From Bacillota bacterium (GTDB lineage Bacteria > Bacillota_I > Bacilli_A > RF39 > UBA660), in the NCBI GenBank assembly GCA_003524085.1, contig DOEC01000006.1:1146-65145 (forward strand): 64,000 nucleotides of DNA, in the 5' to 3' direction. The position numbers were made by a program, and so were the translations under genes. How positions within the stretch are numbered: the stretch's first letter is position 1; the number at the start of each line of letters is the position of its first letter. Below are positions 4,125-46,495 of the stretch, in pieces. A model generated the notes under the pieces. That model was not told the DNA's origin. It saw nothing but the letters and a program-made list of their open reading frames with translations, and ran no database searches.

Positions 4125-4640
4125 TTAGTTACATTCAAACACTTTATCACCAAACACATATACATTATCACTTTTTTTAGCAGTGTATTCTTTATCTTTA
4201 TACTTAAAAGTTATTTTCTTTCCTTTAATCTTACTAATTGTAACGTCTTTTTTTAGATTATCCATTAATGTATCATCTATTTGATAATCTAATATACATC
4301 CACCTGTTCCTGTAGTATAAAGTTCTGCATCTATTTCTCTATATTTTCTAGCTAAAACTTTGTTTAACTCTTCATTTAATTTTCCAGTAAATACTGAATT
4401 TATAGTATCCTCTATTTTTTCATAACTGTTATATGTACTATTAGCTGTTTTATACCAATTAACATCTTTTAATGTGACTTTTGAGTCTTCATAAACAGGT
4501 AACCCTACTCCTTCAGTAATATAAATTGACGCATAAGCTTTTTCTAATGAGTCATAAAACATTGTAGTTTTTTCTTCATCAGTTGTTCCGCATCCAGTTA
4601 ATAACACAAGTGATAAAATAACAATAATAATCTTTTTCAT
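4125..4640 (-). CDS. Lipoprotein of unknown function
   Basis: A signal peptide is present with the lipobox LLTGC. Confidence 0.6.
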   Translation of the reverse strand: MKKIIIVILSLVLLTGCGTTDEEKTTMFYDSLEKAYASIYITEGVGLPVYEDSKVTLKDVNWYKTANSTYNSYEKIEDTINSVFTGKLNEELNKVLARKYREIDAELYTTGTGGCILDYQIDDTLMDNLKKDVTISKIKGKKITFKYKDKEYTAKKSDNVYVFGDKVFECN

Positions 4641-4698: not shown

Positions 4699-6612
4699 CT
4701 ATTTTAACAATTTTTCTATTTTTTCTAATAGTAAGTCAAAATCAAATCCACTAGTTTCTAATACTTCTCTTTCTCTATTAGAATATACATAATCATTTAA
4801 AGTTATTAAATATTTATCACTATAAACAAATTTATTCCAAATATTATCACTACTCATTTCAATAGCTACCACTTTAGCGCCTACTGGAAATAACTCTTGC
4901 TTATACTCTTTTTCATTCTTTAAATATAAGTTAACGCTTGGCATTGATACTACTCTTGTAAATAAGCCTCTGTTTTCTAATTCATCACTTATTCTTAAAG
5001 ATAATTCTACTTCATTACCTGTTGAAACTATTACACCACCAAGTCTACCTTTTTCTTTCTTAATGATGTATGCTCCTTTACTTACTTCATTGATAGAAGA
5101 ATTATCTAACATTCCTTTATATTTTTTAGTTATAATTAATGCACTTGGTATTTTTTTATTTATAATATAGTCCCAAGAACCAACTAATTCATTCACATCA
5201 GCAGATCTCATTACATTTAAATTAGGAATACTTCTTAAATCGCTTAATTCATTAACTACTTCAGTATATTTATTATTACTTGTATCTATAAAAGTATCGT
5301 TAACAAAGATATAACTTACTGATTTTTTAATTATACTAGACATTTTAAGTGAAGACTTCATGTAGCTAGAATTACTTAAAGTTGTTTCTATTACTGGTTT
5401 TAAGTTTAGTAAAGACATTCCATTTGCTATCATACCACCTGATAAATATTTAGTACCTAAATATATAGTTTTATCTTTATCAAATTCTATTTTAGTTTCA
5501 TTTTTATTATATAAATCAATATTAATCATTAACGGGCACATACTAGAAATAGCATTAAGTAAATTATTATTTGTTTCTCTTAAGTCTTCTTGCATATTTT
5601 CATCAAATCCAACTTTGATATTTTTAATATTCATTTTAAAGTTATCTTCTTCTAATAAACTTATTATTTTTTTCTTTTCTTCATTCACTTCAATAATCTT
5701 ATTATATGTACTTACCCATTCATTATAGTAAGTGTTATTTTTTTCTAAGATATTTTTAAATTCATTATATGAACTTGCTGATATGTGATATGGCACTTGT
5801 GTAATACTCATTTTTTCTTTAACTAAAGCTAAATCGTTTTCACTTATTACATACTCATGACCCTTTGGACTTGCTTGCATACTTGTACCTATTGCTATCA
5901 TTGTTTTAATTTCAATTATGCTAGGTTTACCACTTTCTTTAGCTCTTGTAATAGCTTTATCTATTAAAGTATAATCTTCTGCATTAGTTACTGTTTCAAC
6001 AAAATAGCCTAGGCTTTCTAAATATTTAAGTTTGTTTGTGTAGCTAGATGTATCTTTTTTACCATCCACTGTAGTTTCAAATGAATTATATAAAATAATT
6101 AGATTATTTAAGTTTTCTTTAGCAGCTACTTCTAAAGATTCCATTGCTACAGGACTAGAGATGCACTCATCTGTTACTAATGTATAAGTGTAGAAATTAA
6201 TTAGTTCTTTACCAAGCAACTTTTGCATGTATTTACTACCAAGTGTAACTCCTACAGCCAAAGACAACCCTTCACCATTTTTTCCAGTTGTACTTTCAAT
6301 ACCAATACTAGGGTTAAGTTCAGGATACACACTTAGTTTACCACTTCCATAATTTTTAACATCTTCTAGTGTTATGTTGTAGCCTGAATATAAAAGTATA
6401 CTATATAATAAAGGTGCAGCACCTGGTGTGGACAATATAAATCTGTCTCTATTTATCCAAGTTGGATCAGTACTTACAAAATGCATGTGTTTTGTAAATA
6501 CCGTATATATTGTCGGTGCTAGAGAAAGCGTTAGTCCAGCGTCACCTAGTCCCCTATTATAAATCATGTCTACACTCAAACTTCTTAAAGAATTAATTAA
6601 CTTAGTATCCAT
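4699..6612 (-). CDS. Transketolase-family protein with degenerate catalytic and TPP-binding residues (putative pseudoenzyme)
   Basis: It aligns over its full length with transketolase, including the shared RDRF(V/I)LS and RVVSMPS blocks. However the motifs SGHPG, GHGS, HSKTPGHPE, GDG...N and DGPTHQ are all replaced. Confidence 0.7.
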   Translation of the reverse strand: MDTKLINSLRSLSVDMIYNRGLGDAGLTLSLAPTIYTVFTKHMHFVSTDPTWINRDRFILSTPGAAPLLYSILLYSGYNITLEDVKNYGSGKLSVYPELNPSIGIESTTGKNGEGLSLAVGVTLGSKYMQKLLGKELINFYTYTLVTDECISSPVAMESLEVAAKENLNNLIILYNSFETTVDGKKDTSSYTNKLKYLESLGYFVETVTNAEDYTLIDKAITRAKESGKPSIIEIKTMIAIGTSMQASPKGHEYVISENDLALVKEKMSITQVPYHISASSYNEFKNILEKNNTYYNEWVSTYNKIIEVNEEKKKIISLLEEDNFKMNIKNIKVGFDENMQEDLRETNNNLLNAISSMCPLMINIDLYNKNETKIEFDKDKTIYLGTKYLSGGMIANGMSLLNLKPVIETTLSNSSYMKSSLKMSSIIKKSVSYIFVNDTFIDTSNNKYTEVVNELSDLRSIPNLNVMRSADVNELVGSWDYIINKKIPSALIITKKYKGMLDNSSINEVSKGAYIIKKEKGRLGGVIVSTGNEVELSLRISDELENRGLFTRVVSMPSVNLYLKNEKEYKQELFPVGAKVVAIEMSSDNIWNKFVYSDKYLITLNDYVYSNREREVLETSGFDFDLLLEKIEKLLK

Positions 6613-6672
6613 ATTTTCACCTTCTTATTATAATTTAATTATAACACATGAGAAAATACTAAGCAACTATTT

Positions 6673-6828
6673 TTATGCGTAGTAAACTTCTACCTCTATT
6701 GGAGTTTTCACATTACTAGCATTTACATCTTCTATCTTTTTAGTAAGCATAAATGCAAGTATCGCTATAATAAAATAGAATAACAATATACCTTTCATAC
6801 TATTAAATAATTTTTCAACTTTTTCCAT
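6673..6828 (-). CDS. Small hydrophobic single-TM protein (51 aa), not in the ORF track
   Basis: The ATG at 6828 is preceded by AAGGAGAG at 8-nt spacing. The translation is MEKVEKLFNSMKGILLFYFIIAILAFMLTKKIEDVNASNVKTPIEVEVYYA. Confidence 0.35.
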   Translation of the reverse strand: MEKVEKLFNSMKGILLFYFIIAILAFMLTKKIEDVNASNVKTPIEVEVYYA

Positions 6829-6900
6829 TTCATTCACTCTCCTTATGCACCTATTTTATAACATATATTAGTTTGTGTCAATATTAAATCGCAAAAATGT

Positions 6901-6929
6901 TTGACAAATTTACATTTGTGTGTTAAACT
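6901..6929 (+). promoter_or_regulatory. Putative lexA promoter (TTGACA-N17-TAAACT) with an inverted repeat ACAAAT-N4-ATTTGT in the spacer (candidate operator)
   Basis: The hexamers and the inverted repeat at 6904-6919 are read directly. No canonical GAAC-N4-GTTC Cheo box is seen. Confidence 0.35.
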
Positions 6930-6952: not shown

Positions 6953-7570
6953 ATGGAAAAATTAACTAAAAAACAAGAAGAAGTCTTGACAGTTATTAAA
7001 AAATACATAGCTGAACACGGCTATGCTCCAAGTGTAAGAGAAGTTTGTGAACTTATGAATTTAAGTTCAACTGCAACTGTATTCGTACATATGAGACATC
7101 TTATGAAGAAAGGATATTTAAAACAAACAGATAATAAATTTAGAACACTAGAAGTTTTAGTACCAAACGAATACTTAGAAAAAAATGAAGACGTTGTAAA
7201 CGTTCCACTACTTGGAAAAGTTACATGTGGTAACCCTATTGAAGCTATTGAGTTTCCTGATGAATACATAGCTTTACCAGCATTCATGATACCTAAGAAA
7301 GAAGAAATATTTACATTAAAAACTGAAGGAATGAGCATGAAGAACGTTGGAATATATGATGGAGATATAGTTATAGTAAAAAGACAAAAGAATGCAAAAA
7401 ATGGAGATTATGTTGTAGCACTTGATGAAAATGGATTTACTACATTAAAGACATTTTATAAAGAAAATGGATATTTTAGACTACAACCAGAAAACGAAAC
7501 TATGGACCCTATTATACTTGATAAAGTTGAGATACTTGGAATTGCAATAGGTCTATATAGAAAGTTTTAG
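6953..7570 (+). CDS. lexA: LexA repressor (S24 peptidase)
   Basis: The N-terminal wHTH and the C-terminal Ser/Lys dyad region (GMSMKN...IVIVKRQ) are present. It aligns along its length with B. subtilis LexA. Start was chosen at MEKLTKKQ. Confidence 0.9.
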   Translation: MEKLTKKQEEVLTVIKKYIAEHGYAPSVREVCELMNLSSTATVFVHMRHLMKKGYLKQTDNKFRTLEVLVPNEYLEKNEDVVNVPLLGKVTCGNPIEAIEFPDEYIALPAFMIPKKEEIFTLKTEGMSMKNVGIYDGDIVIVKRQKNAKNGDYVVALDENGFTTLKTFYKENGYFRLQPENETMDPIILDKVEILGIAIGLYRKF

Positions 7571-10943: not shown

Positions 10944-11852
10944 CTAACTAATTTGCACAGTTTTATTTATTTTAAATTCTACTATAGTTACTTGATTATC
11001 TTTTACGTAATGAGCTTCAAACTTATTTACTGACTTTGTTATAATTATTCCAATAGTACTATTTTGAGTTATATTTTTTAAGTGTTCGTCAATATAGTTC
11101 ATATACGTTTTTATTTGACCATAGTCACTTTTCTTATATTCTCTTGATTTTATCTCTACTACACAATATCTACTTTCAACCACATTATAAAATAGATAGT
11201 CTATATAATTCTTTTTGTCTCCAATGTTAAGTTTATATTCTCTTCCGACGTAAAAATATCCACCGCCTAATTGTTTCATAAAACTATCTAAGTTTTCATA
11301 AATAATTTCTTGTAATATTTTTTCAGTATAAACTTCATAACTTTTATTAGGTGTTAACACTATTGGACTGGGGACACTTTGAATTAAAGAAAGTTCTTCT
11401 TTATTTAAAAGACTTTCTTTTGCTTCAGTTGAGAGTCTACCATACTCATTACTCTTTATTCTTTCAGCTAATGCTCTTTTACTTAAATTATCTCGTTTAG
11501 TAATATGAATATAATACTTAATTTCTTTGATATCTCTTAGTGATAATAAAATCTTGTAATGACTCCACGTCAATTGTCGCTCCAGTGGAGCGACTTTTTG
11601 AATTAATAAATAAAATTGTTGTATCTTATATAAATCTTTTTCCTTATATCCACTTCCAAATTCCTTAGTTAAAATACTTGCATATTTTTTTACTATTCCT
11701 TCTCCATAGTGTTTACCTGCTTCTACTAGTTCCCTTCCTATATTATAATTCATTGTAAGTTTTACATTATTTATCTGATAATTCTTAGCTACTACTTTAG
11801 CATTTCCATTTATTATTTCAGTCTTTATATTACTTAAATATTCGTCTATCAT
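10944..11852 (-). CDS. DUF1016/YhcG-family PD-(D/E)XK nuclease-like protein, tandem paralog 1
   Basis: The N-terminus has DUF1016_N hallmarks (LTWSHY, KRALAERI). The C-terminus has a PD-(D/E)XK-like D...EIK block (NYIDYLFYN...CVVEIKSREY). Confidence 0.75.
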   Translation of the reverse strand: MIDEYLSNIKTEIINGNAKVVAKNYQINNVKLTMNYNIGRELVEAGKHYGEGIVKKYASILTKEFGSGYKEKDLYKIQQFYLLIQKVAPLERQLTWSHYKILLSLRDIKEIKYYIHITKRDNLSKRALAERIKSNEYGRLSTEAKESLLNKEELSLIQSVPSPIVLTPNKSYEVYTEKILQEIIYENLDSFMKQLGGGYFYVGREYKLNIGDKKNYIDYLFYNVVESRYCVVEIKSREYKKSDYGQIKTYMNYIDEHLKNITQNSTIGIIITKSVNKFEAHYVKDNQVTIVEFKINKTVQIS

Positions 11853-11864
11853 AAATTTTCCCTC

Positions 11865-12773
11865 CTAACTAATTTGCACAGTTTTGTTTATTTTAAATTC
11901 TACTATAGTTACTTGATTATCTTTTACATAATGTGCTTCAAACTTGTTTACTGATTTTGTTATAATTATTCCAATAGTATTATTTTGAGTTATATTTTTT
12001 AAGTGTTCGTCAATGTAGTTCATATACGTTTTTATTTGACCATAATCGCTTTTTCTATATTCTCTTGCTTTTATTTCAACTACACAATATCTACTGTCAA
12101 CTACATTATAAAATAGATAATCTATATAATTCTTTTTGTCTCCAATGTTAAGTTTATATTCCCTACCAATAAAAGCGTAGCCTCCACCAAGTTGATGCAT
12201 AAAATCTTCTATATTTTCAAAGATTATTTCTTGTAATATTTTTTCAGTATAAACTTTATAACTTTTATTAGATGTCAACACTATTGGACTTGGGACACTT
12301 TGAATTAAAGAAAGTTCTTCTTTATTTAAAAGACTTTCTTTTGTTCCATCTGAAAGTCTATCATACTCATCACTTCTTATTATTTCAGCTAATTTTCTAT
12401 AACTTAAATTATCTCTTATAGAAATATTAGTATAATAATTGATTTTATTGATATCTTTTAAAGGTAAAAGTAATCTTATGTGTTCCCAAGTCAATTGGTG
12501 CGGCAATGCCGCACCTTTTTCAAAAAGAACATAAAATTGACGCATTCTCTTTAAATTAGATACAGAATATCCACTTCCAAATTCCTTAGTTAAAATACTT
12601 GCATATTTTTTTACTATTCCTTCTCCATAGTGTTTACCTGCTTCTACTAGTTTCCTTCCTATATTATAATTCATTGTAAGTTTTACATTATTTATCTGAT
12701 AATTCTTAGCTGCTACTTTAGCATTTCCATTTATTATTTCAGTCTTTATATTACTTAAATATTCGTCTATCAT
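11865..12773 (-). CDS. DUF1016/YhcG-family PD-(D/E)XK nuclease-like protein, tandem paralog 2
   Basis: It has the same architecture as paralog 1. The N- and C-terminal thirds are near-identical to paralog 1 and the central region is divergent. Confidence 0.75.
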   Translation of the reverse strand: MIDEYLSNIKTEIINGNAKVAAKNYQINNVKLTMNYNIGRKLVEAGKHYGEGIVKKYASILTKEFGSGYSVSNLKRMRQFYVLFEKGAALPHQLTWEHIRLLLPLKDINKINYYTNISIRDNLSYRKLAEIIRSDEYDRLSDGTKESLLNKEELSLIQSVPSPIVLTSNKSYKVYTEKILQEIIFENIEDFMHQLGGGYAFIGREYKLNIGDKKNYIDYLFYNVVDSRYCVVEIKAREYRKSDYGQIKTYMNYIDEHLKNITQNNTIGIIITKSVNKFEAHYVKDNQVTIVEFKINKTVQIS

Positions 12774-12785
12774 AAATTTTCCCTC

Positions 12786-13694
12786 CTAACTAATTTGCAC
12801 AGTTTTGTTTATTTTAAATCCTACTATAGTTACTTGATTATCTTTTACATAATGAGCTTCAAACTTATTTACTGATTTTGTTATAATTATTCCAATAGTA
12901 CTATTTTGAGTTATAGTTTTCAAGTGTTCGTCAATGTAGTTCATATACGTTTTTATTTGGCCATAATCGCTTTTCTTATACTCTCTTACTTTTATTTCAA
13001 CTACACAAAAACAGTTCATTTTGTAATTGTATAAAAGATAGTCTATATAATTCTTTTTATCTCCAATATTGAGTTTATATTCTCTACCAATAAAAGAGTA
13101 TTCTCCACCAAGTTGATGCATAAAATCTTCTATATTTTCAAATATTATTTCTTGTAATATCTTCTCATTATAAAATTCATAGCTTTTATTTGGTGTCAAT
13201 ACTATCGGACTGGGTATGCTTTGAATTATTGAAAGCTCTTCTTTGTTTAAAATACCCTCTTTCGTTTCAGTTGAAAGTCTGCCATACTCATTACTTCTTA
13301 TTCTTTCAGCCAATGCTCTTTTGCTTAAATTATCTCGTTTAGTAATACTAATATAATACTTGATTTCTTCTACATTTTTTAATGGTAAAAGTAATTTATA
13401 ATGAGACCAAGTCAAAAGTTGCCCCACTGGAGCAACTTTTTGACTTAAATCATAAAATTGCTTCATTCTTGTTAATTCTGTAAAAGTATATCCCTTACCA
13501 AATTCTACCGTTAATTCCTTTGCATATTTTTTTACTATTCCTTCTCCATAATGTTTACCAGCTTCTGCTAGTTCCTTACCAATATTATAGTTCATTGTAA
13601 GTTTTACATTGTTTATCTGATAATTTTTAGCTATTACTTTAGCATTACCATTTATTATTTCATTCTTTATATTTTCTAAATAATTGTCTATCAT
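12786..13694 (-). CDS. DUF1016/YhcG-family PD-(D/E)XK nuclease-like protein, tandem paralog 3
   Basis: It has the same architecture as paralog 1. It is preceded by the conserved about 90-bp leader. Confidence 0.75.
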   Translation of the reverse strand: MIDNYLENIKNEIINGNAKVIAKNYQINNVKLTMNYNIGKELAEAGKHYGEGIVKKYAKELTVEFGKGYTFTELTRMKQFYDLSQKVAPVGQLLTWSHYKLLLPLKNVEEIKYYISITKRDNLSKRALAERIRSNEYGRLSTETKEGILNKEELSIIQSIPSPIVLTPNKSYEFYNEKILQEIIFENIEDFMHQLGGEYSFIGREYKLNIGDKKNYIDYLLYNYKMNCFCVVEIKVREYKKSDYGQIKTYMNYIDEHLKTITQNSTIGIIITKSVNKFEAHYVKDNQVTIVGFKINKTVQIS

Positions 13695-13925: not shown

Positions 13926-15368
13926 TTAAACAATTGAGAATAACATCAATACTAAAATGTTTACTATTGCAATTGTTATAACTACTTTTAATGCCCATTT
14001 GAACCAAGTTGAATAGTCTACTTTAGCAAGAGCAAGTCCTCCCATTATTGCTCCACAAGTTGGAGTTATTAAGTTTACTAATCCATTTGCACTTACAATA
14101 GTCATAGCCGCTACTTCAGTTGAATAACCTAAGCTTGCAGCAAGTGGTCCAGTTATTGGAGTTGAAAGTGTTGCAAGTCCACTACTTGATGGTACTAAGA
14201 ATGATAACACTATATGTAGTAAGTAGTTTAGTGGAACGAATACTAATTCTGGTAGTTTACTTAAATGTTCAGTTGCATTATAAATAATGTAATTGTCTAA
14301 GTAAGTTTGTTTCATTAATACAGAAGCTCCTCTTGCTACTGCTATTACTAAGATAACACCTATCATATCTTTTGTTCCATCAATAAATGTATCTACAAAC
14401 TCTTTTTCTTTGTAACCATTGATTAAAGATATTACTATACTCATTAAGAAGAACCAAAGTGCAGACTCGTAGAAGTACCAGTTACCTAAACTAGAGCCTG
14501 TAAGCCATCCAGTAAATCCATCAAAGAAAGTTATGTCAAATTCTCCCCATGGAATAAATCCTATAATCATTATTAAGAATGTTAAAGCAAAAACACATAA
14601 AGTTATTTTTTGTTTTGTAGTTAAAACTTCTTTTTGCTTTGATTTTTCCTCAAATTTACCAAATTCTTTTTCAGCTTCTTCTTGCTCTCTTAAAGAAAGT
14701 ATAGTTGAACCTTTATCTTTTTTAACTTTACTTGCATAAGCTAACACAAACAATGTTGATATTAGGTAAGCTAATAACCATAAGATTATGCCTATAAATA
14801 ATACAGTTCCTTGATTATATTCTACACCAGCTGCTCTTAAAGCAGATAATACAGCTCCTGTTGCAAATGGGTTAACTGTTGAACCAAGAACACCAGTACC
14901 AGCACCTAATAAAACTACTGCTGCACCTACAAGTGGGTCCATTCCTGCGGCAAACATCGTAGCTGCTAGAAGTACGTAGAAGCCAACTGTTTCTTCAAGC
15001 ATTCCATATGTTGTACCACAAATTGAGAAGATAAACATTAATATTGGTATTAACCATAATTCTTTACCTTTTAATTTTTGTACTAAAACTTTGATACCTG
15101 TTTCTAAAGCCTTAGTTTTGTCTATTATTTTAAGGAATCCTCCTAAAATAAGTACGAATATTGCAACATCTACAGCATTTTCAAATCCCAATATTGGTGC
15201 TAGTAAGATTTGGCTTAATTTAGCCCCTACTGTACCACTTCCATTTACTATTTCTTCACCAACGAATTTAGCATCTGGTAGTAAATGTGAAAGAATTCCA
15301 AGTACTACTATAACTATCATTATAATAGTATATGCTGATAACATGCTTCTATTCTTTTTCTTTGTCAT
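13926..15368 (-). CDS. Polytopic membrane transporter, YfcC/DcuC-like anaerobic carrier family; putative arginine/ornithine exchanger of the ADI operon
   Basis: About 12 TM segments are present. It is co-oriented with and immediately upstream of arcC-arcB-arcA. The family assignment is from overall character, not from a diagnostic motif. Confidence 0.55.
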   Translation of the reverse strand: MTKKKNRSMLSAYTIIMIVIVVLGILSHLLPDAKFVGEEIVNGSGTVGAKLSQILLAPILGFENAVDVAIFVLILGGFLKIIDKTKALETGIKVLVQKLKGKELWLIPILMFIFSICGTTYGMLEETVGFYVLLAATMFAAGMDPLVGAAVVLLGAGTGVLGSTVNPFATGAVLSALRAAGVEYNQGTVLFIGIILWLLAYLISTLFVLAYASKVKKDKGSTILSLREQEEAEKEFGKFEEKSKQKEVLTTKQKITLCVFALTFLIMIIGFIPWGEFDITFFDGFTGWLTGSSLGNWYFYESALWFFLMSIVISLINGYKEKEFVDTFIDGTKDMIGVILVIAVARGASVLMKQTYLDNYIIYNATEHLSKLPELVFVPLNYLLHIVLSFLVPSSSGLATLSTPITGPLAASLGYSTEVAAMTIVSANGLVNLITPTCGAIMGGLALAKVDYSTWFKWALKVVITIAIVNILVLMLFSIV

Positions 15369-15369
15369 A

Positions 15370-16305
15370 TTATTTTCCTCCTTTTATGACTGTACCATTT
15401 TTATATTCTAATGCGTCACTAGCGCATTCTAGCGATGTAATTATTGCAGTTTTATTTCTGTTTTCTACAAAATTTATACATGCTTCTATTTTAGGCAGCA
15501 TACTTCCAGGAGCAAACTGGTTATCACTTATATACTTTCTTGCTTCTTCTACTGTGATAGTATCTAACCCAGTCATATTTTCTTTATTGTAGTTTAAGTA
15601 TACTTTATCAACAGCAGTTAATATAAGTAACACATCAGCATCTACTTCTTTAGCAAGTAAACTAGCTGACTTATCTTTATCAATTACTGCATCTACTCCT
15701 TTTAGAAGATTATTTTCCATTATAACTGGAACTCCTCCACCTCCAGCACATATAACAATTACATCATCTTCAACAAGTTTTTTTATAACTTTGTCATTTA
15801 GTATTTTTTTAGGTATAGGAGATGGTACTACTCTTCTATATCCACGGCCTGCGTCTTCTTTAAAAATGTAACCTTTTTCACTTTCTATTACACTGGCTTC
15901 TTCTTTAGTGTAAAACATTCCAATAGGTTTAGTAGGATTTTTAAAACATCCATCATTTTTATCAACTAAGACCTCTGTTATTAAGGCTACTATAGATTTG
16001 TCAATGTCTCTTTTGTTTAGTTCATTCATTATTGACTGTTCTATATGGTAACCAATATAACCTTCACTCATACTACCACACTCTGCAAATGGCATTGATG
16101 GAGTAGCAGCACTTCCATTACTAGCATACTCCATTGCAAGAGAGATTTGCCCAACTTGCGGTCCATTTCCATGTGTAAGTATTACTTTGTTACCTTTTTC
16201 TATAAGGTCCACTATTACTTTAGAAACACCCTCTAGAATAGATAATTGTTCACTAGGAGTCTTCCCTAGAGCATTTCCTCCTAGAGCTATAACTATTTTA
16301 CTCAT
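15370..16305 (-). CDS. arcC: Carbamate kinase
   Basis: The N-terminus is [13 protein letters not shown] and the protein is about 310 aa, typical of carbamate kinase. It lies in the ADI operon. Confidence 0.9.
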   Translation of the reverse strand: MSKIVIALGGNALGKTPSEQLSILEGVSKVIVDLIEKGNKVILTHGNGPQVGQISLAMEYASNGSAATPSMPFAECGSMSEGYIGYHIEQSIMNELNKRDIDKSIVALITEVLVDKNDGCFKNPTKPIGMFYTKEEASVIESEKGYIFKEDAGRGYRRVVPSPIPKKILNDKVIKKLVEDDVIVICAGGGGVPVIMENNLLKGVDAVIDKDKSASLLAKEVDADVLLILTAVDKVYLNYNKENMTGLDTITVEEARKYISDNQFAPGSMLPKIEACINFVENRNKTAIITSLECASDALEYKNGTVIKGGK

Positions 16306-17297
16306 TACTCTTCCCTCATTGTTAGATATATTACAGCTTTAATTGTATGTAATCTATTTTCAGCTTCATCAAATACTTTTGATTTTGGACTATTAAATAC
16401 TTCGTCAGTTACTTCCATTTCTTTTAGACCAAATTTTTCATATATCTCTTTTCCAATTGTTGTATTTAAATCATGAAATGATGGTAAGCAGTGTAAAAAT
16501 ATTGCGTTTTCGCTTGCATTTGACATAACACTCATGTTTACTTGATATGGACTAAGTAATTTAATACGACTAGCCCATACTTCATCTGCTTCTCCCATTG
16601 AAACCCATACGTCAGTATATATTACGTCAGCACTCTTAGTAGCAACATTTACGTCTTCTTCTAAAGTTATAGTACACCCATTAGTACTAGCAATTTCCTT
16701 ACAAGTATTAACTAACTCTTCTTGTGGCCATAATTCACGTGGAGCACATGCTACAAAGTTTATTCCCATTTTAGCACATACTACCATAAGTGAATTTGCA
16801 ACGTTGTTTCTAGCATCTCCCATAAATACTAACTTTAAGCCCTTTAAATATCCAAAGTTTTCTTCAATAGTCATAATATCTGCAAGCATTTGTGTTGGAT
16901 GAAATTCTGTTGTAAGTCCGTTCCATACAGGTACTCCAGCATTTTTGGCTAACTCTTCTACTATTGTTTGACTGTATCCACGATATTCTATTCCATCATA
17001 CATTCTACCTAATACTTTAGCAGTATCAGCAATACTTTCTTTTTTACCCATTTGACTAGCATTAGGATCTAAATACGTCACTCCCATACCAAGGTCAAGT
17101 GCAGCAACTTCAAAAGCACATCTTGTTCTAGTTGAAGTTTTTTCAAATAAAAGTACAATGTTTTTATTTGGTAAATATTTATGTTCAATATGTAATTTCT
17201 TTTTTTCTTTAAAATCTTTAGATATGTCTAGTAAAAACCTTATTTCTTCAGGTGTATAATCTAATAATTTTAAGAAATGTCTTCCTGTTAAATCCAT
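16305..17297 (-). CDS. arcB: Ornithine carbamoyltransferase (catabolic)
   Basis: The STRTR and HCLP motifs are present. It lies between arcA and arcC. Confidence 0.9.
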
Positions 17298-18541
17298 TAT
17301 ATATCCTCCCTAACTAGTGGCATACTCATACATCTTGGGCCACCTCTTCCACGTGATAATTCAGCACTTGGCATTTCAAGAACTTTTATTCCGTGTTCTC
17401 TTAGTATATTGTTAGTCATGTTGTTTCTATCGTATACTACTACTACACCAGGCGCTATACAAAGAGTGTTTGTTCCGTCATTCCATTGTTCTCTTTCACT
17501 AGATATTTTTTCTCCTCCAGCACATGGAATAAGTGTAATTTTCTTTCCAAGATATTTTTCTAATATTTCTTCTAAACTACCTTCTACTTTTTTAACATTT
17601 AAGTCTTCAAATGTAGTTGGATCATCTCCTTCAGTAATTTCGTAAACTTCTAGAGTGTTCATTATTCCTGGATGGTATGTAAACTTATCATAATCTATTT
17701 GTGTAAATACAGTGTCTAAATGCATAAATGCACGACTTTCTGGTATTTTGAAAGATAGTACTGTTTCTACTTCACAAGTAGGTTCTTTAAATAAGTTTTT
17801 AGCAAGTTCATCAATTGCGGCAGGCTCTGTTCTTTGTGAGATACCTACAGCAATAACTTTATTACTTATGTTTAATACGTCTCCACCTTCAATGTGGTAA
17901 GGTAGGTTTCTACTATAGTACCTTTTTACTTTACCCTTGAAGTCAGGATGATACTTGAATATAAAGTCAGCATATATAGTTTCTCTATTTCTAGTAACTG
18001 AATACATTCTATTTAGTATTGCCCCGTTACCACAGCTTGCGAATGGGTCTCTTGTAAAGTAGAGGTTTGGTATTGGGTCAGCTAAGAAGTCACTCTCATC
18101 ACTTACAAAGTCAACTAAGCTTTTTTCTACTTCTCTTTTTCTTAATGGTATTTCTTCTATTTTTATACCACTCATTGTTTTTAATACTAATTCTTTTTTA
18201 TCAGTAAAGCTATGTAAGTAGTCATATACTAGAGTTCTATATTTAGGAGTAGTTATTCCAGCTTCATAGATAAATTCTTTTAGAAATTCGTCTAGTATTT
18301 CTTCACTAATACTTAATACTTCACTAACTAGGTCTTCTAGATATACTACTTCTATACCATTTTCTTTTAGAATTCTTGCGAATTCGTCGTGTTCAGCTTG
18401 CGCGACTGGTAAGAAAGGTATATCATCAAATAAAAGTCTTCCTAATGTATCTGGAGTTAGATTAAGCAGTTCATTTCCAGGTCTATGAAGAAGTACTTTC
18501 TTAAGTGGACCTATTTCACTTTTAACATTAATTCCTTGCAT
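17297..18541 (-). CDS. arcA: Arginine deiminase
   Basis: It is a typical ADI of about 410 aa with the C-terminal catalytic Cys context ([11 protein letters not shown]). Confidence 0.9.
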
Positions 18542-26429: not shown

Positions 26430-27926
26430 ATGAAACAAGTATTAGAATATTTAGAAAAAAATGACAAAAATAAAACAGCAGTTATATGTGAAAATGAATC
26501 TATTACATATGAAGAGTTAATTAGTAAATCCAAACTAGTTGGGTCTAACCTTATAAATAAAGTTAAAATTAATGAACCAGTAATAGTTTTTATGGATAAA
26601 GGTATAACTACACTAGAAGTATTTTTTGGTATTTTATATAGTGGTGGGTGTTATAGTTTAGTAAATCCAGAGTTTCCTCAAAATAGAATTAAATCTATTT
26701 TAAATACTCTTGAAGCAAAATGCGTTATTACAAATATAGAAAACTATGAAAAAGCTAAAGAAGTTTTTAATGGAATAAATATAATTAAGTGTGAAGATTT
26801 AGTTAGTGGTAGTATTTTAGAAAGTGAATTAGAAAACATTAGAAGATCTAAACTAGACATAGACCCAGTATATATTAATTTTACAAGTGGTAGTACTGGG
26901 GTACCAAAAGGTGTTGTAGTAAGTAATAGAAGTATAATTGATTTTATTGATGTATTTACTAACCTATTTGATATTAAAGAAAGTGACATAATTGCAAACC
27001 AAGCACCATTTGATTTTGATGTTTCAGTAAAAGACATCTATAGCGCACTTTGTAAAGGTTCTACTTTGTTAATAGTACCAAAGAAATTATTTAGTAGTCC
27101 TGCTAATTTGCTTGATTACTTAGTTATAAACAACGCTACTACACTTATCTGGGCAGTCAGTGCATTATGTTTAATTACTACATTCCACGGCCTAGACTAC
27201 AAAGTTCCAACAAGTGTTAACAAAATAATCTATAGTGGTGAAGTAATGCCTCTTAAACACTTGAAAATATGGATGGATAAATTACCTAATGTAAGAGTAA
27301 TTAACGTATATGGTCCAACTGAAATAACTTGTAATTGTACATATCATGAAGTTGACAGAAGTAGAACTTATGTAGAAAATATTCCTATTGGTAAAAGTTT
27401 TCCTAATGAAAAAGTTTTCTTACTTGATGAAGAAAACAAACTAGTTAATACTCCTAATATTTCTGGAGAAATATGTGTAAGTGGAACTTGTCTTAGTTTA
27501 GGATACTATAATAATAAAGAAGTTACAGATAAAGTATTTATGCAAAACCCACTAAACAATAAATACATTGAACCTATTTATAAAACTGGAGACCTAGCAA
27601 TGTATGATGAAAATATGGACTTGTTTTTTAAAGGAAGAAAAGACTTTCAAATTAAATATATGGGCCACAGAATAGAGCTTGAAGAAATAGACACAGAAGT
27701 ACTTAAGTTAGATGGTGTTAAAAGATGTCTCACATTATTTGATGAAAAGAAAAGTAAACTTTGGTGTTTCTATGTAGGAGAAGTTACTAAAGAGGATATT
27801 ATATCTTTCTTAAAAGTAAATGTTCCAGAATACATGGTGCCTACTAAGTATGTTAAGTTAGAAGAGTTTACTCTTACTAAAAATGGTAAAATAGATAGAA
27901 ATGTATTAAAGGAGATGATTAAATGA
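26430..27926 (+). CDS. DltA-like carrier-protein ligase (adenylate-forming enzyme, AMP-binding superfamily)
   Basis: The AMP-binding motif is FTSGSTGVPKGV and YGPTE is present. The size (498 aa) and architecture match D-alanine--D-alanyl carrier protein ligase. Confidence 0.8.
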   Translation: MKQVLEYLEKNDKNKTAVICENESITYEELISKSKLVGSNLINKVKINEPVIVFMDKGITTLEVFFGILYSGGCYSLVNPEFPQNRIKSILNTLEAKCVITNIENYEKAKEVFNGINIIKCEDLVSGSILESELENIRRSKLDIDPVYINFTSGSTGVPKGVVVSNRSIIDFIDVFTNLFDIKESDIIANQAPFDFDVSVKDIYSALCKGSTLLIVPKKLFSSPANLLDYLVINNATTLIWAVSALCLITTFHGLDYKVPTSVNKIIYSGEVMPLKHLKIWMDKLPNVRVINVYGPTEITCNCTYHEVDRSRTYVENIPIGKSFPNEKVFLLDEENKLVNTPNISGEICVSGTCLSLGYYNNKEVTDKVFMQNPLNNKYIEPIYKTGDLAMYDENMDLFFKGRKDFQIKYMGHRIELEEIDTEVLKLDGVKRCLTLFDEKKSKLWCFYVGEVTKEDIISFLKVNVPEYMVPTKYVKLEEFTLTKNGKIDRNVLKEMIK

Positions 27927-29083
27927 ACTATGAAAATATTTTAAGTAAGTACTCTACTCCACTTTTTATCTATGACTGTGATAAGTTAGAACAAAGAGTT
28001 AATTACTTAAAAAATATGTTAGATACTGATTTATGTTATGCAATTAAAGCTAACTCATTTGTTATAAAAGAAATTGAACCATTAGTATCAAGAATTGAAA
28101 TATGTTCTTATGGAGAATACATGATATGTAAAGATAATGGTGTTAAAAATGATAAGATGGTATTAAGTGGGGTTAATAAAAACTATGATGAGTTTGAAAA
28201 AATTATAAAAGAAGAAAATAATATATTAAGATACACCATTGAAAGTATTACTCAGTTTAATATGTTAAAAGAGTTATCTAGTAAATATAAGAAGAATATT
28301 AATATACTACCTAGAATTACAAGTGGTAACCAGTTTGGAATTACAAAAGAAGAACTATATTATATAATAGAGAACTTAACAGAATTTATGACTTTAACAG
28401 GTATAGAATTCTTTAGTGGAACACAAAAACACAGTATTAAGAGAATTGTTAATGAGTTTACTCTAGTTAATGAGATATTTGATTATATAGAAAACACTTA
28501 TAAACTAACTGATTTAGAGTTAGAGTATGGTCCTGGGTTACCTGTTTACTATTTTGAAGAAGAGAGTTTTAATGAAGAAGAATTTTTAAATGAAGTTAAA
28601 AACAATATTCATACATTCTTTAAAGGTAGAAAAGTTATTCTTGAAATTGGAAGAAGTTTAGTAGCAAATTGTGGTGAATATATTACTAAAGTTGTTGATT
28701 TAAAAGAAAATAAGACTGGAAAATACGCTATTATTGATGGTGGAATTAATCATTTAGTATATTATGGTGGCACGATGGGAATGATGAGACCAAAGTTTGA
28801 AATACTAAACAAAAGTAATACCAAAGAAAATATATACAACATATTTGGGTCTCTTTGCACTATTAACGATATAATTGTTAAGAATGTAAGCTTGCCTGAG
28901 TTAGAAATAAATGATACATTTGTGTTTAAGAATACTGGAGCTTATTCAGTAACTGAAGGAATTAACCTATTTTTAAGTAGAGATATGCCTAAAGTGTTAC
29001 TGCTAAAAAATAAGAATGTGTTATTAGTAAGGGACAACATTAACACATATAAGCTAAATAGTCCTAATTATGGAGGTAAATAA
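27923..29083 (+). CDS. PLP-dependent fold-type III decarboxylase (Orn/DAP/Arg decarboxylase family 2, LysA-like)
   Basis: The PLP-lysine motif is YAIKANSF. An EIGRSLVANCGEY (EPGR) block, a DGG motif and a C-terminal GAYS block are also present. Confidence 0.75.
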   Translation: MNYENILSKYSTPLFIYDCDKLEQRVNYLKNMLDTDLCYAIKANSFVIKEIEPLVSRIEICSYGEYMICKDNGVKNDKMVLSGVNKNYDEFEKIIKEENNILRYTIESITQFNMLKELSSKYKKNINILPRITSGNQFGITKEELYYIIENLTEFMTLTGIEFFSGTQKHSIKRIVNEFTLVNEIFDYIENTYKLTDLELEYGPGLPVYYFEEESFNEEEFLNEVKNNIHTFFKGRKVILEIGRSLVANCGEYITKVVDLKENKTGKYAIIDGGINHLVYYGGTMGMMRPKFEILNKSNTKENIYNIFGSLCTINDIIVKNVSLPELEINDTFVFKNTGAYSVTEGINLFLSRDMPKVLLLKNKNVLLVRDNINTYKLNSPNYGGK

Positions 29084-29084
29084 A

Positions 29085-29315
29085 ATGGAAAAATTATTAG
29101 AAATATTAGAGGAAATCAAGCCTGGTGTAGACTATGAAAATATTGATACTTTAATTAATGACCACTACTTAGATTCACTTTCTATACTTTCTTTAATAAG
29201 TGAACTAGAAGATGAATTTGATATTGTTATACCAACAGTTGAAATAATACCAGATAACTTTAATTCAGTTAAAAGTATGATGGCTCTAATTAACAAATTA
29301 AAAGAGGAAGATTAA
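29085..29315 (+). CDS. Carrier protein (DltC/ACP-like, phosphopantetheine attachment site)
   Basis: The attachment motif is LDSLSILSLISELE and the protein is about 77 aa. An RBS GGAGG lies 8 nt before the ATG. Confidence 0.75.
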   Translation: MEKLLEILEEIKPGVDYENIDTLINDHYLDSLSILSLISELEDEFDIVIPTVEIIPDNFNSVKSMMALINKLKEED

Positions 29316-29317
29316 TT

Positions 29318-30883
29318 ATGCAATATAGTGAGTTATCTTACTTTCTTTTTTTACCTTTAGTAATGTTACTTTACACTTTTACTCCTAAGAAATTTAGATA
29401 CATTACTTTACTAGTAGCAAGTTTATTCTTCTTTTATACATTAAGTGGAAAATTATTAATTTATGTCGTATATAGTACTCTTATAATGTACTTTGCTTCT
29501 TTATTAATTGACCACTTTAATGAGTTAGAAGATAATATAAACGAAGAAATGCCTAAAGAAGAAAAGAAAGCTTTAAAATTAAAATATAACAAATATAAAA
29601 AAATAACTTTAGTAATTAGTATACTCTTGCTTTTGTCTACACTACTACTAACTAAATATTTGAACTTCTTTATTACAGTAATAAATGATGTATTTAAAAG
29701 TGGTTTATCTTTAACACGTATTCTAGCGCCTATTGGAATTAGTTTTTATACTTTTGAAGTATTGTCTTATTTAATAGATATATATCATAAAAAATATAAA
29801 GCTAATAAAAATATTTTGAAATGTGCCTTGTATATAGTGTTCTTCCCAACTTTAATGGAAGGACCAATTGCAAGGTATGAACAAATTAAAGATAGTTTAT
29901 TTAGTGGAGAAACAATTAATTATACTAATATGTGTTTTGCTCTTCAAAGAATAGTATATGGTCTTGGTAAAAAGCTTATTATTGCAGACAGATTAAATCC
30001 TATAGTAAAAATGATATTTAATAATTATAGTAACTATAATGGTGGAGTTGTTTTATTAGGTGGAATACTTTATACCATTCAGTTATATATGGACTTTTCT
30101 GGAATTATGGACATTGTAATTGGTAGTGGGCAGATATTTAATATTAAATTACCTGAAAACTTTAAACAACCATTTTTTTCTAAAAATATAAGTGATTTTT
30201 GGTCTAGGTGGCATATCACTCTTGGAACGTTTTTTAAAGACTATATCTTCTACCCTATTTCATTATCTAGAATTTCTAGAAATATTACTAAAATCCTAAG
30301 AAAAAAACTTGGTAGTCATTTTGGACCTTTAGTAAGTGGTTCAATTGCTTTATTAGCAGTTTGGCTAAGTAATGGTTTATGGCATGGAGCAGGATACCAA
30401 TACATCTTATTTGGAATGTATCACTTTGTACTAATCTTACTTGGTAATATATGTATGCCATTAATTAATAGATTTTATGATAAGACAAAAATAAATAAAG
30501 AAAGTGTTTTTGTTAAGTGTTTTAGCATTTTAAGAACTACTATATTAGTAATATTTGGAGAAATAATATTTAGATCAAACTCTGTAAAAGATGCATTATC
30601 TATGATTAAAAGAATATTTACTAACTTTAGTTTTGATATAGTTAAACCTTTAAATAAGATAGGACTAGACATATACGATATGATTATTATTTTAGTTACT
30701 CTTATTGTTATAGTGGTTATTAGTATTTTAAAAGAAAAGAATATTAACGTTAGAGAAATTATTAGTAAAAAGCCTATCTATATTAGATGGATAATCTATT
30801 ATGCTCTTATATTATATGTTTTAATCTTTGGTGCTTATTTGGGTCCATATATTCCGGTTGACCCAATGTATGCTAATTTTTAG
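29318..30883 (+). CDS. MBOAT-family membrane O-acyltransferase (DltB/AlgI-like)
   Basis: It is a polytopic 521-aa protein with a conserved His-containing MBOAT core (WSRWHITL, WHGAG). Confidence 0.8.
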   Translation: MQYSELSYFLFLPLVMLLYTFTPKKFRYITLLVASLFFFYTLSGKLLIYVVYSTLIMYFASLLIDHFNELEDNINEEMPKEEKKALKLKYNKYKKITLVISILLLLSTLLLTKYLNFFITVINDVFKSGLSLTRILAPIGISFYTFEVLSYLIDIYHKKYKANKNILKCALYIVFFPTLMEGPIARYEQIKDSLFSGETINYTNMCFALQRIVYGLGKKLIIADRLNPIVKMIFNNYSNYNGGVVLLGGILYTIQLYMDFSGIMDIVIGSGQIFNIKLPENFKQPFFSKNISDFWSRWHITLGTFFKDYIFYPISLSRISRNITKILRKKLGSHFGPLVSGSIALLAVWLSNGLWHGAGYQYILFGMYHFVLILLGNICMPLINRFYDKTKINKESVFVKCFSILRTTILVIFGEIIFRSNSVKDALSMIKRIFTNFSFDIVKPLNKIGLDIYDMIIILVTLIVIVVISILKEKNINVREIISKKPIYIRWIIYYALILYVLIFGAYLGPYIPVDPMYANF

Positions 30884-30894
30884 GAGGTAATGTT

Positions 30895-31818
30895 ATGAAA
30901 AATATATTAAAATCCACATTATTTTTAAGTATACTTTTAGTTATCATTATATATATGGGAAAAATCTTTACTCCTAAAGATAACACTTTAGAAAGTGGGA
31001 TGAATGAAGTAAGAGCTAATGGAATACTTGGAGAAAAAGATGATATTGATGTTATTATAATTGGAGACTCTTTAACATACAGTTCATTTATACCAATTGA
31101 GATGTATAAAGAATACGGGTTTACTTCATATGTAATGGGTACTCATGCACAAAGAAGTCATGATACTTATAAGTTACTTAAGAATGCTCTTAATTATCAA
31201 AAACCTAAAGTTGTAGTACTTGAAACTAATCTTTTATTTAGAAAATATAGTTTTAATAGAGATATGCTTAGTAAGCTTGAAACAATACTACCTTTCTTTG
31301 ATTATCATAATAGATGGAAAAATCTAAGTTTTAAAGATTTTACTAGTGAAATTAATTATACTTACACTGACCCGACTAAAGGATATATGTTAAAGAAAAG
31401 TGTTAAAAGTGGAAAGACTTATAATTATATGAAAAAAGATAGTAAAGTTACTCATATAGTTAATAGAAATTATGTTTATTTAGAGAAAATAAAAAAGTTA
31501 TGCAGTGAAAATAATATCAAGCTAATTTTGGTAAGCGCATCAAGTGAAAGGAATTATAACTTTAGTAAACATGAAAGTATTGAAAAATATGCAACCAAGA
31601 ATAAAATAGACTATATTGATTTAAACTTAGAAGATGTTAAAATTGACTGGGAAAAAGATACTACTGATAAAGGAGATCATTTGAATTATTTGGGAGCTTT
31701 AAAAGAAAGCAAGTTTTTTGGTAATATTTTAAAAGATAGGTATAATCTGGTAGATAAAAGAGGTACACTAGAAAGTTGGGATAAACTAGAAATGGTGTAC
31801 AATAAAAAAGCTAGATAG
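30895..31818 (+). CDS. Extracytoplasmic SGNH/GDSL-like protein (DltD/AlgJ-like partner of the MBOAT)
   Basis: It has a signal-anchor N-terminus and GDSL block I (VIIIGDSLTYSS). Confidence 0.6.
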   Translation: MKNILKSTLFLSILLVIIIYMGKIFTPKDNTLESGMNEVRANGILGEKDDIDVIIIGDSLTYSSFIPIEMYKEYGFTSYVMGTHAQRSHDTYKLLKNALNYQKPKVVVLETNLLFRKYSFNRDMLSKLETILPFFDYHNRWKNLSFKDFTSEINYTYTDPTKGYMLKKSVKSGKTYNYMKKDSKVTHIVNRNYVYLEKIKKLCSENNIKLILVSASSERNYNFSKHESIEKYATKNKIDYIDLNLEDVKIDWEKDTTDKGDHLNYLGALKESKFFGNILKDRYNLVDKRGTLESWDKLEMVYNKKAR

Positions 31819-39310: not shown

Positions 39311-39387
39311 GGGGAATTAGCTCAGTTGGCTAGAGCACCTGCCTTGCACGCAGGGGGTCGCGGGTTCAAGTCCCACATTCTCCACCA
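39311..39387 (+). tRNA. tRNA-Ala (UGC)
   Basis: A cloverleaf can be drawn by eye. The anticodon loop is CUUGCAC, the G3:U70 Ala identity pair is present, the CCA is encoded and there is one T-stem mismatch. Confidence 0.85.
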
Positions 39388-46130: not shown

Positions 46131-46207
46131 TGGTCGGGAAGACAGGATTTGAACCTGCAACCACTCGGTCCCAAACCGAGTGCTCTACCAAGTTGAGCCA
46201 CTTCCCG
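46131..46207 (-). tRNA. tRNA-Pro (UGG)
   Basis: A cloverleaf can be drawn by eye. The anticodon loop is UUUGGGA and the CCA is encoded. Confidence 0.85.
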
Positions 46208-46212
46208 ATAAA

Positions 46213-46289
46213 TGGCGTCCCCAAGAGGAGTCGAACCCCTAACCTTTTGATCCGTAGTCAAACGCTCTATCCAGTTGAGCTATGAGGAC
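46213..46289 (-). tRNA. tRNA-Arg (ACG)
   Basis: The anticodon stem-loop UUUGA-CUACGGA-UCAAA is identical to B. subtilis tRNA-Arg(ACG). The CCA is encoded. Confidence 0.85.
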
Positions 46290-46332
46290 AGCCTGTCCAA
46301 AATATATATAAGCTCCGGCTGGCTTTTAAAAA

Positions 46333-46408
46333 TGGTGGCTTCAGTTGGAATCGAACCAACGACACCAAGATTTTCAGTCTTGTGCTCTGCCAACTGAGCT
46401 ATGAAGCC
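46333..46408 (-). tRNA. tRNA-Phe (GAA)
   Basis: The anticodon loop is CUGAAAA and the 5' end is GGCUUCAUAGCUCAGUUGG. Confidence 0.85.
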
Positions 46409-46412
46409 ACAA

Positions 46413-46488
46413 TGGCGGTTCCGACGGGAATTGAACCCGCGATCCCTCGCGTGACAGGCGAGTGTGATAACCGCTACACCACGGAACC
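46413..46488 (-). tRNA. tRNA-Asp (GUC)
   Basis: The anticodon loop is CUGUCAC. Confidence 0.85.
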
Positions 46489-46495
46489 TTATTTT

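Follow-up and report, generated by a model that had tools for sequence, protein, structure and literature searches.

Canonical transketolases, such as those of Bacillus anthracis (3M49), Staphylococcus aureus (8R3S), and Streptococcus pneumoniae (8R3R) and the TktA of Escherichia coli, are the closest described relatives of the protein discussed here. That protein, 637 amino acids long, is encoded at positions 4699..6612, on the minus strand and from an ATG start, of a 64,000-nucleotide stretch of bacterial DNA (called "the window" below; positions 1,146 to 65,145 of contig DOEC01000006.1, Bacillota bacterium assembly GCA_003524085.1, placed by GTDB in RF39, UBA660). It has the three-domain architecture of these enzymes and belongs to their length class. 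It matches them with E values from 2e-85 to 1e-59, is predicted to superpose on solved transketolases at template modelling (TM) scores of 0.93-0.95, and carries their sequence blocks WINRDRFILS, YTY..V, and RVVSMPS. It does not, however, have their thiamine diphosphate (ThDP)/Mg motif, their activating Glu, five of their six active-site His, their Asp469, or their stacking Phe. The pocket in its clade, unlike theirs, is no longer under selection. Here, we argue that this gene probably encodes a transketolase-derived pseudoenzyme, kept by selection for a non-enzymatic role.

Compromised catalysis in a transketolase homolog has a known example in human TKTL1. A transketolase variant made to mimic TKTL1 has neither ThDP binding nor activity (PMC3485151), and TKTL1 itself is reported to act by heterodimerizing with active transketolase, not by catalysis (PMC6555833). 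Compromised catalysis is what the two proteins share. TKTL1 is a vertebrate paralog that exists beside an active transketolase; a 38-residue deletion cost it its function, and it keeps most of the other catalytic residues. The protein in the window, in contrast, has no deletion (its alignment is continuous over residues 4-636), has point replacements at nearly all functional residues instead, and is an ortholog at the ancestral tkt locus. Neither mark of a TKTL1-type protein, which would be paralogy and a deletion of ∼38 residues in the diphosphate-binding (PP) domain, is found.

Searches of open-access papers turned up no account of a transketolase pseudoenzyme in bacteria. A possible precedent for a non-catalytic role does exist in E. 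coli, where active TktA is reported to bind the MarR repressor and to affect chromosome topology. TktA is, of course, fully active, and the precedent is an analogy only.

An earlier, sequence-only reading of the ORF (open reading frame) at 4699..6612 had called it a homolog of transketolase from end to end, and this is borne out. Pfam recognizes the PP domain homolog (Transketolase_N, PF00456, 2e-57) at residues 2-315 (5668..6609, minus strand) and the C-terminal domain (Transketolase_C_1, PF22613, 1.6e-21) at residues 513-624 (4741..5076, minus strand). Between these lies a degenerate aminopyrimidine-binding (Pyr) domain, residues 346-510 (5083..5577, minus strand), whose match to Transket_pyr (PF02779) reaches 24.0 bits, under the cutoff of 27. 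The NCBIfam equivalog model TIGR00232 covers residues 4-636, and the 41 sequence matches in the PDB are transketolases without exception, the top match being 8r3r (E = 2.3e-85, residues 5-633). Homology and fold are thus those of a full-length, three-domain transketolase, the Pyr domain giving no more than a sub-threshold match in Pfam. The shared blocks quoted in that reading are found as well: RDRFILS at residue 55, YTYTLV at 141, and RVVSMPS at 553.

The structure prediction that the same reading had proposed as a check also gives the three-domain transketolase fold. The AlphaFold2 (AF2) model has a predicted local distance difference test (pLDDT) score of 91 and a predicted TM score (pTM) of 0.91; the alignment supplied to AF2 contained active canonical transketolases, so this confidence speaks for compatibility with the fold and is not evidence of a closed pocket. 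The sole weak stretch is residues 441-450, formerly the "DGPTH" loop, where pLDDT falls to 56.

What the protein does not have is the active site. We read 23 positions in a MAFFT alignment with E. coli TktA, positions that we take, from the structural literature on TktA and yeast TKL1, to be those that bind Mg2+-ThDP and substrate. Five are kept (TktA numbering, with the numbering of the 637-residue protein in brackets): G114, D155 (D148), H261 (H252), R358 (R345), and Y440. The other 18 are lost. Canonical relatives lose 1-4 of these positions, keeping 19-22 of the 23, and the loss seen here is therefore well outside the variation usual in the family. In the PP domain, H26 is replaced by D24, H66 by G64, H100 by Y96, L116 by N, G156 by E149, E160 by S, N185 by F178, and I187 by T180. 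Further along the chain, D381 has become Y, S385 has become E, E411 is Y389, F434 is T411, and F437 is N414. Among catalytic and substrate-binding residues, H461 is replaced by N438, D469 by N446, H473 by T450, and R520 by K.

Grouped by function, these replacements leave little intact. The ThDP/Mg2+ motif, G-D-G-X(25-30)-N together with His66, reads T147-D148-E149 ... F178 together with Gly64, with the Asp as its sole survivor. The activating Glu (E411) is absent, and Y440 alone is kept from the pyrimidine pocket (F434, F437, Y440). The catalytic and substrate set (H26, H100, H261, H461, D469, H473, R358, S385, R520) is reduced to H261 and R358. The sequence-only reading had claimed the loss of the catalytic histidines and of the cofactor-binding signature; it was right in the main, but the Mg-ligand Asp of GDG and the active-site histidine H261 are still there. 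The degenerate motifs that it quoted are all present (LGDAG at residue 22, TPGAAPL at 62, SGKLSVYPE at 90, TDECISSP at 147, YNSFETTVDG at 175, and DTSNNKY at 443). Its pairing of DGPTHQP with the last of these is two residues off register, as EDGPTHQP aligns with SNNKYTEV; the conclusion is unaffected.

The register of the alignment is, of course, critical to any such argument. Three independent alignments (HMMER to PDB sequences, MAFFT, and structure-based) agree on it. Further, the whole protein contains just four histidines, at positions 42, 44, 252, and 276, which excludes catalytic histidines at shifted positions, the finding by which the sequence-only reading could have been overturned; the alignment with TktA upholds its loss residue by residue. 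The score against TIGR00232 is also not that of a functional transketolase (401.1 bits, where the cutoff is 682.25), and that against NF004558 is 386.8, where the cutoff is 788. Four of five sequence-testable features of functional transketolase thus fail, and EC 2.2.1.1 is therefore not a proper label for the protein. One mark of a pseudoenzyme is that it is clearly homologous to an active family but has lost essential residues, and both are seen here. Judged from these residues, the product is likely to be unable to bind Mg2+-ThDP or to carry out ketol transfer.

The window also encodes a SpoVD-type penicillin-binding protein (PBP), SigE, SpoIIGA, and YunB, and its G+C content is 25-33% except at a tRNA cluster; these features place the source among the low-GC, spore-forming Firmicutes of the gut. 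Its nearest genome, with 96% identity, is L003, a metagenome-assembled genome of an uncultured member of the Bacilli in the gut of a Hadza individual. The GTDB representative that comes next has just 41% identity, and its transketolase is canonical. In a protein search, relatives at 100, 89, 73, and 54-56% identity (P0001-P0017) have degenerate sites in every case; those at 39-49% identity (P0018-P0064) are nearly all canonical and end in the same C-terminal tail (LLEKxEKLLK). The degenerate sequences form a single clade within the canonical ones in a neighbour-joining tree. In an exhaustive profile search, one 50%-identity representative, at 1124 bits, stands for the whole clade; the match after it scores 588 bits, meaning that the clade is compact.

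Gene order tells us where this clade came from. At the degenerate genes having 89, 73, and 55% identity, lexA is transcribed in one direction, and a 50/51-residue ORF, the transketolase-like gene, and a gene for a 171-172-residue lipoprotein follow one another in the other; a SpoVD-type PBP and MraY usually come after the lipoprotein. For the 56% relative, the contig begins so near the gene that neither lexA nor the small ORF could be included; the pairing of the transketolase-like gene with a 172-residue lipoprotein is kept. An identical order, with a lipoprotein of ∼175 residues, surrounds the canonical tkt of P0018 and P0034 (loci L087 and L088), and LexA is 88-90% identical between the degenerate and canonical groups. 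Because the canonical sister tkt shares this synteny, the dead gene is a same-locus descendant of an ordinary tkt, and not a paralog. In other words, the ORF at 4699..6612 is orthologous, by position, to the canonical tkt that sister gut Bacilli carry.

This sister tkt (P0018-P0064) is the natural counterpart for comparison. It sits in the same slot among the same neighbors (lexA, the 50-residue ORF, lipoprotein, PBP, MraY), shares 39-49% identity with the degenerate protein, and looks active. It differs in keeping 19-22 of the 23 sites and in having 3-4 times fewer lineage-specific substitutions. The claim that the synteny is ancestral extends no further than uncultured gut Bacilli, where 14 of 33 loci show it. 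No lexA lies within 10 kb of tkt at the Bacillus, Streptococcus, and Helcococcus loci that were fetched, and the idea that tkt sits near lexA in Bacillus and Staphylococcus could not be confirmed.

The window contains no second transketolase, nor any transketolase or pentose-phosphate gene among its other ORFs of at least 150 residues. Two candidates were set aside: a 659-residue ORF is a sulfatase-family protein, and an adjacent pair of 314/317-residue ORFs encodes CofD and VanY. Rfam finds no thiamine pyrophosphate riboswitch in the window, and no other riboswitch or non-tRNA family; its matches there are tRNAs only.

A gene that has lost its active site might, of course, be a pseudogene. 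The ratio of nonsynonymous to synonymous substitution rates (dN/dS, by the method of Nei and Gojobori, NG86) indicates that this one is not. It is 0.081 between the window and L083 (dS 0.68, bootstrap 95% limits 0.058-0.105), 0.152 between the window and L003 (dS 0.11, limits 0.09-0.26), and 0.164 between the window and L085 (dS 1.14). Single domains have values of 0.06-0.19 in informative pairs (0.11-0.19 for Pyr, 0.06-0.16 for the C-terminal domain), and all three are below 0.3. Pairs of canonical genes give 0.045-0.18, so that constraint on the dead gene is of the same order. Neighboring housekeeping genes are tighter, at 0.02-0.07.

The reading frame agrees. The clade has 15 full-length clusters, which span 54-100% identity and hundreds of member sequences, and in every one of them the protein is 632-641 residues long. 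Neutral simulation at the observed dS leads one to expect 14-49 premature stops, with the frame open in none of 400 runs. The sequence-only reading had judged the gene to be intact and not decaying, and had proposed dN/dS against orthologs as a check; with dN/dS of 0.08-0.16, bootstrap limits no higher than 0.26, and a frame intact down to 54% identity, its judgment holds, and the gene is under purifying selection. Lineage-specific substitutions are nevertheless 3-4.4 times those of the canonical sister (p ≤ 1e-10 in the Tajima relative-rate test). The pattern is that of a burst of change on the stem of the clade, and then renewed purifying selection.

Purifying selection does not now act where it acts in an enzyme. 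Whole-protein column entropy is alike in the dead clade (0.89) and the canonical relatives (0.85), but at the 23 pocket positions it is 1.14 in the dead clade versus 0.21 in the canonical relatives. The pocket sites of the Pyr domain are the most variable (1.57). In the PP domain, the replacements D24, Y/F96, F178, and T180 are fixed throughout the clade, and the retained D148 and H252 are likewise invariant. Over residues 261-360 the comparison is reversed, with entropy of 0.5-0.9 in the dead clade versus 1.0-1.7 in the canonical relatives.

The sliding dN/dS delivers the same message. It is lowest over residues 181-360 (5533..6072, minus strand), which form the C-terminal half of the PP domain and the PP-Pyr linker helices: 0.018-0.026 for the window against L083 (dS ∼0.8-1.1) and 0.08-0.10 against L085. 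It peaks, at up to 0.30, where the cofactor motifs formerly sat. Within residues 181-360, dS spans 0.8-2.3 over both pairs. As dS is high there, the constraint acts on the protein, and a DNA or RNA element embedded in this segment was rejected as the reason for its conservation. Constraint has thus moved from the active site to residues ∼181-360.

The clade is not alone. In related uncultured Bacilli, sites have been lost independently, in part or heavily, the number kept of 23 being 6 in P0039, 8 in P0040, 14 in P0032, 13 in P0023, 17 in P0061, 14 in P0078-81, 10 in P0100-120, and 7 in L032. The replacement residues differ among these other lineages, which stand at separate places in the tree. 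Of the 138 full-length 50%-identity representatives nearest the clade profile, 28 keep at most four of ten core residues and 94 keep all ten; a query made from the clade profile favors dead forms, and 28/138 is not a frequency. Some representatives keep none of the ten, several dead ones are closer to a canonical sequence than to other dead ones, and one all-dead group has diversified to 48-63% internal identity. Each dead lineage whose context was inspected is still in the lexA-divergent unit. The recurrence suggests that dead, full-length transketolases are general among gut Bacilli, and not a curiosity.

The dead loci include L090:6001-7995, L032:9992-11992, P0039 (L092:4770-6722), and P0167 (L093:6001-7968). 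At L093:4850-5980 and L094:906-2057, a gene of the monogalactosyldiacylglycerol-synthase-type/glycosyltransferase-28 class, UgtP-like by its domains, stands between lexA or the small ORF on one side and the transketolase-like gene on the other. In the P0112 lineage, the lexA-like gene beside the dead transketolase (L090:5352-5864, L091:3276-3788) encodes 170 residues with a match to the LexA DNA-binding domain and none to Peptidase_S24; by its sequence, this LexA-like protein may be unable to self-cleave. A dN/dS of ∼1.07 obtained for this second dead lineage (L090 versus L091) was rejected as an artefact, the test having no power. The lineage is a single species (median identity 99.7%). Of the 23 differences, 20 are crowded into the final ∼30 residues, where a contig with 3x coverage ends, and three are spread over the rest of the gene.

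How might such a protein arise and persist? We consider it likely that the product is a selected pseudoenzyme derived from transketolase, and the history would run as follows. An ordinary tkt of low-GC gut Bacilli would have given rise, at the same locus, to a descendant that kept the three-domain fold. Binding of Mg2+-ThDP would have been lost through the changes of GDG to TDE, Asn185 to Phe, His66 to Gly, Glu411 to Tyr, and Phe434/Phe437 to Thr/Asn, and ketol transfer through the changes of His26 to Asp, His100 to Tyr, His461 to Asn, Asp469 to Asn, and His473 to Thr. A burst of substitution on the stem of the clade would then have given way to purifying selection that ignores the old active site and is strongest at residues ∼181-360. 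The selected role would be to bind, without catalysis, another protein or something similar, by way of a surface that is not the old active site; it would depend on the fold, and above all on the surface formed by residues 181-360. As catalytic death followed by retention recurs at the same locus, this role probably pre-existed in active transketolase as a second, "moonlighting" one, and would have been kept once the cell could do without the chemistry or had it from another gene. The sequence-only reading had, in a similar vein, proposed a repurposed non-catalytic scaffold. That the homolog is dead but kept is supported by residue loss, dN/dS, and frame; that it is a scaffold is something we infer.

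Several observations weigh against this pseudoenzyme. The transketolase-like protein diverges 2-3 times faster than its housekeeping neighbors, having 89% identity where LexA, NusG, SigE, and PBP have 95-99%; the constraint is therefore real but moderate. The invariant residues of the PP pocket, D24, D148, F178, T180, and H252, could also mark a new ligand site. The AF2 confidence, for the reason given above, says nothing about pocket closure. Last, the selection test attempted in another dead lineage (L090 versus L091) had no power.

Other explanations were weighed. The protein might, for example, regulate and not catalyze, pairing with an active transketolase whose gene lies elsewhere in the genome, in a heterodimer that modulates pentose-phosphate flux. 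The active sites of transketolase form at the dimer interface, so that a dead subunit could heterodimerize with an active one, and the fact that the whole three-domain fold, Pyr and C-terminal domains included, is under purifying selection fits an architecture still competent to dimerize. Many Firmicutes, further, carry additional or split tkt genes. The heterodimers reported for human TKTL1 with active transketolase provide precedent (PMC6555833). We nonetheless regard this as unlikely, since by position the gene is orthologous to the one tkt seen at this locus and is not an added paralog, the window offers no second transketolase, and nowhere in the protein is constraint more relaxed than in the Pyr segments, from which a canonical transketolase builds much of its interface and active site. 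Alternatively, the protein may have been neo-functionalized, its remodelled PP pocket now supporting ThDP-independent chemistry or the sensing of a sugar phosphate or other metabolite. Here, the clade-invariant replacements (H26 to D, N185 to F, I187 to T, H100 to Y/F), the retention of D155, H261, and, mostly, R358 (a ligand of the substrate phosphate), and the entropy of the PP pocket sites, which is about that of their domain (0.74 versus 0.79), speak for this. Such a pocket is, however, quite unlikely: across the same cleft, the Pyr residues that line it vary more than the remainder of the protein does (1.57 versus 1.12), the segment holding the GDG/Asn motif (residues 121-180) has among the highest dN/dS, other dead lineages differ at these positions and hence show no convergent new site, and Pfam and NCBIfam detect no known family or motif.

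Slow decay of a non-functional gene, after the need for the pentose-phosphate pathway was lost, would explain the loss of catalytic residues, a substitution rate 3-4 times that of the sister clade, and evolution faster than that of the housekeeping neighbors; erosion is, moreover, common in the genomes of AT-rich, host-associated organisms such as these. Decay is very improbable all the same, as all domains have a low dN/dS (0.08-0.16 for the gene, with limits far under 1), the frame is intact in every member of the clade across ∼45% amino-acid divergence against the stops expected from neutrality, and strong Shine-Dalgarno sequences and a promoter-like site have been kept. Finally, one might suppose that the protein is still a transketolase, active with non-canonical or shifted residues. 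Its fold is preserved, D155, H261, and R358 are kept, and glyoxylate carboligase is a ThDP enzyme that works without the canonical Glu. We find this barely credible. The register is not in dispute among the alignments, two of the four histidines are structural, and the diphosphate/Mg motif has gone together with the activating Glu, the two stacking Phe, and five residues that serve catalysis or bind substrate, in a protein scoring 281 bits under the NCBIfam equivalog cutoff.

The genes around the pseudoenzyme gene have their own interest. Downstream, at 4125..4640 on the minus strand and 58 nucleotides past its stop, lies the gene for a lipoprotein of 171 residues, with a lipobox (LLTGC; LPAM_1, 21.3 bits) and its own Shine-Dalgarno sequence. 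This lipoprotein family is narrow (14 matches) and corresponds to no known sequence family. An AF2 model of it (pLDDT 88) has one significant fold match, a loose one, to IseA (E 6.3e-4, TM 0.40), which in B. subtilis is an inhibitor of DL-endopeptidases. The sequence-only reading had used the tandem with the lipoprotein as an argument for repurposing. This argument does not discriminate: the series of 50-residue ORF, tkt, and lipoprotein beside lexA is also found at canonical tkt in sister lineages, so the tandem is ancestral and uninformative about repurposing, and we rejected it as evidence.

Upstream, a gene for a small single-pass membrane protein of 51 residues occupies 6673..6828 on the minus strand (start ATG 6828, with the mechanically called ORF beginning at GTG 6837). 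Pointing away from lexA, this gene opens the unit. An ORF of 49-51 residues is at the same place in L083, L085, L089, L087, L088, L092, and L093, that is, in degenerate and canonical lineages alike, and no Pfam family matches the 51-residue protein. In several Gram-positives, small single-pass membrane proteins divergent from lexA are SOS-induced division inhibitors, such as SosA/YneA (PMC6851548); the 51-residue ORF fits this type by analogy of position and topology only. lexA itself lies at 6953..7570 on the plus strand (205 residues; start ATG 6953, with the mechanical ORF from GTG 6920; LexA_DNA_bind 6.8e-21, Peptidase_S24 4.4e-28), and its product is 82-100% identical among relatives.

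The small ORF, the transketolase-like gene, and the lipoprotein gene may form one transcription unit, as their sequence context suggests. Good Shine-Dalgarno sequences precede the transketolase-like gene (GAAGGTGA at 6617-6624) and the lipoprotein gene, and no terminator separates the genes of the unit. A promoter-like site, TTGACA-17-TAAAAT (11 of 12 matches; 6853..6881, minus strand), stands upstream of the small ORF and is conserved in relatives; a second, TTCTCA-16-TATAAT (10 of 12 matches; 6627..6654, minus strand), is directly upstream of the transketolase-like gene. The region holds 21 promoter-like sites, where 21.2 are expected in shuffled sequence, so such sites are weak evidence.

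The intergenic region between lexA and the small ORF (6862..6919) contains three Cheo-box-like elements, candidate LexA operators, at 6904-6919, 6890-6903, and 6862-6875, the last within the promoter spacer. The region is conserved across ten related loci (the window and nine others). In relatives the elements read CGAAC-N4-(A/G)TA(T/C)G, and in the window the half-sites have drifted to CAAAC/CAAAT; an exact GAAC-N4-GTTC has no match anywhere in the window. Taken over the window and the nine other loci, the conserved elements in and beside the promoter spacer are of a CGAAC/CAAAC-N4-ATATG-like form, where the Cheo-type operator of Bacilli is CGAAC-N4-GTTCG. In this AT-rich lineage, the putative operator for LexA may thus have drifted from the Cheo type.

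From these neighbors comes a speculative tie between the pseudoenzyme and an SOS, cell-division, or envelope module, made up of the LexA-box-like promoter, the SosA/YneA-like protein, and the lipoprotein. A broader hypothesis, which we offer tentatively as possible but doubtful, is that dead transketolases are recurrent and long-lived in host-associated, low-GC Bacilli, always at the lexA-divergent locus, through a second function, outside metabolism, that outlasts catalysis and is perhaps linked to this module. If this were true, the protein in the window would be a natural separation-of-function allele, exposing a hidden role of transketolase.

The rest of the window contains features unrelated to this gene. 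Three tandem paralogs of 302 residues with near-identical N-termini lie at 10944-13694 (minus strand); the one scanned has DUF1016_N and YhcG PDDEXK nuclease domains. At 13926-18541 (minus strand), genes for arginine deiminase, ornithine carbamoyltransferase, and carbamate kinase make up a complete cluster for the arginine deiminase pathway, with a DcuC-family carrier replacing the usual antiporter. At 26430-31818 (plus strand) are genes for an AMP-binding enzyme, a pyridoxal-phosphate decarboxylase of the ornithine/diaminopimelate/arginine type, an MBOAT acyltransferase, and a 307-residue protein without a family; this cluster resembles a Dlt-like system for modifying the cell envelope, but the decarboxylase is unusual. 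Twelve tRNA genes are clustered at 46134-47224 (minus strand) and account for a G+C peak at 46-48 kb; an isolated tRNA gene is at 39311-39384 (plus strand). A run of ORFs of 181-511 residues (47690-49621, 53818-55110, 56180-60177, and 60958-61959, minus strand) has no Pfam match at E ≤ 1e-5.

The pseudoenzyme would add a ThDP enzyme of central metabolism to the bacterial pseudoenzymes, and would do so with evidence that is clean: the same locus, an active sister clade, and selection that can be measured. Its recurrence (28 clusters at 50% identity among 138 representatives) makes this group of Bacilli a natural experiment for a non-catalytic role of transketolase. There is also a practical consequence for those who reconstruct metabolism from genomes. 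Annotation by homology will call such genes "transketolase," and reconstructions that follow it would then wrongly credit these uncultured gut organisms with a functioning non-oxidative pentose-phosphate pathway and with a need for thiamine at this step.

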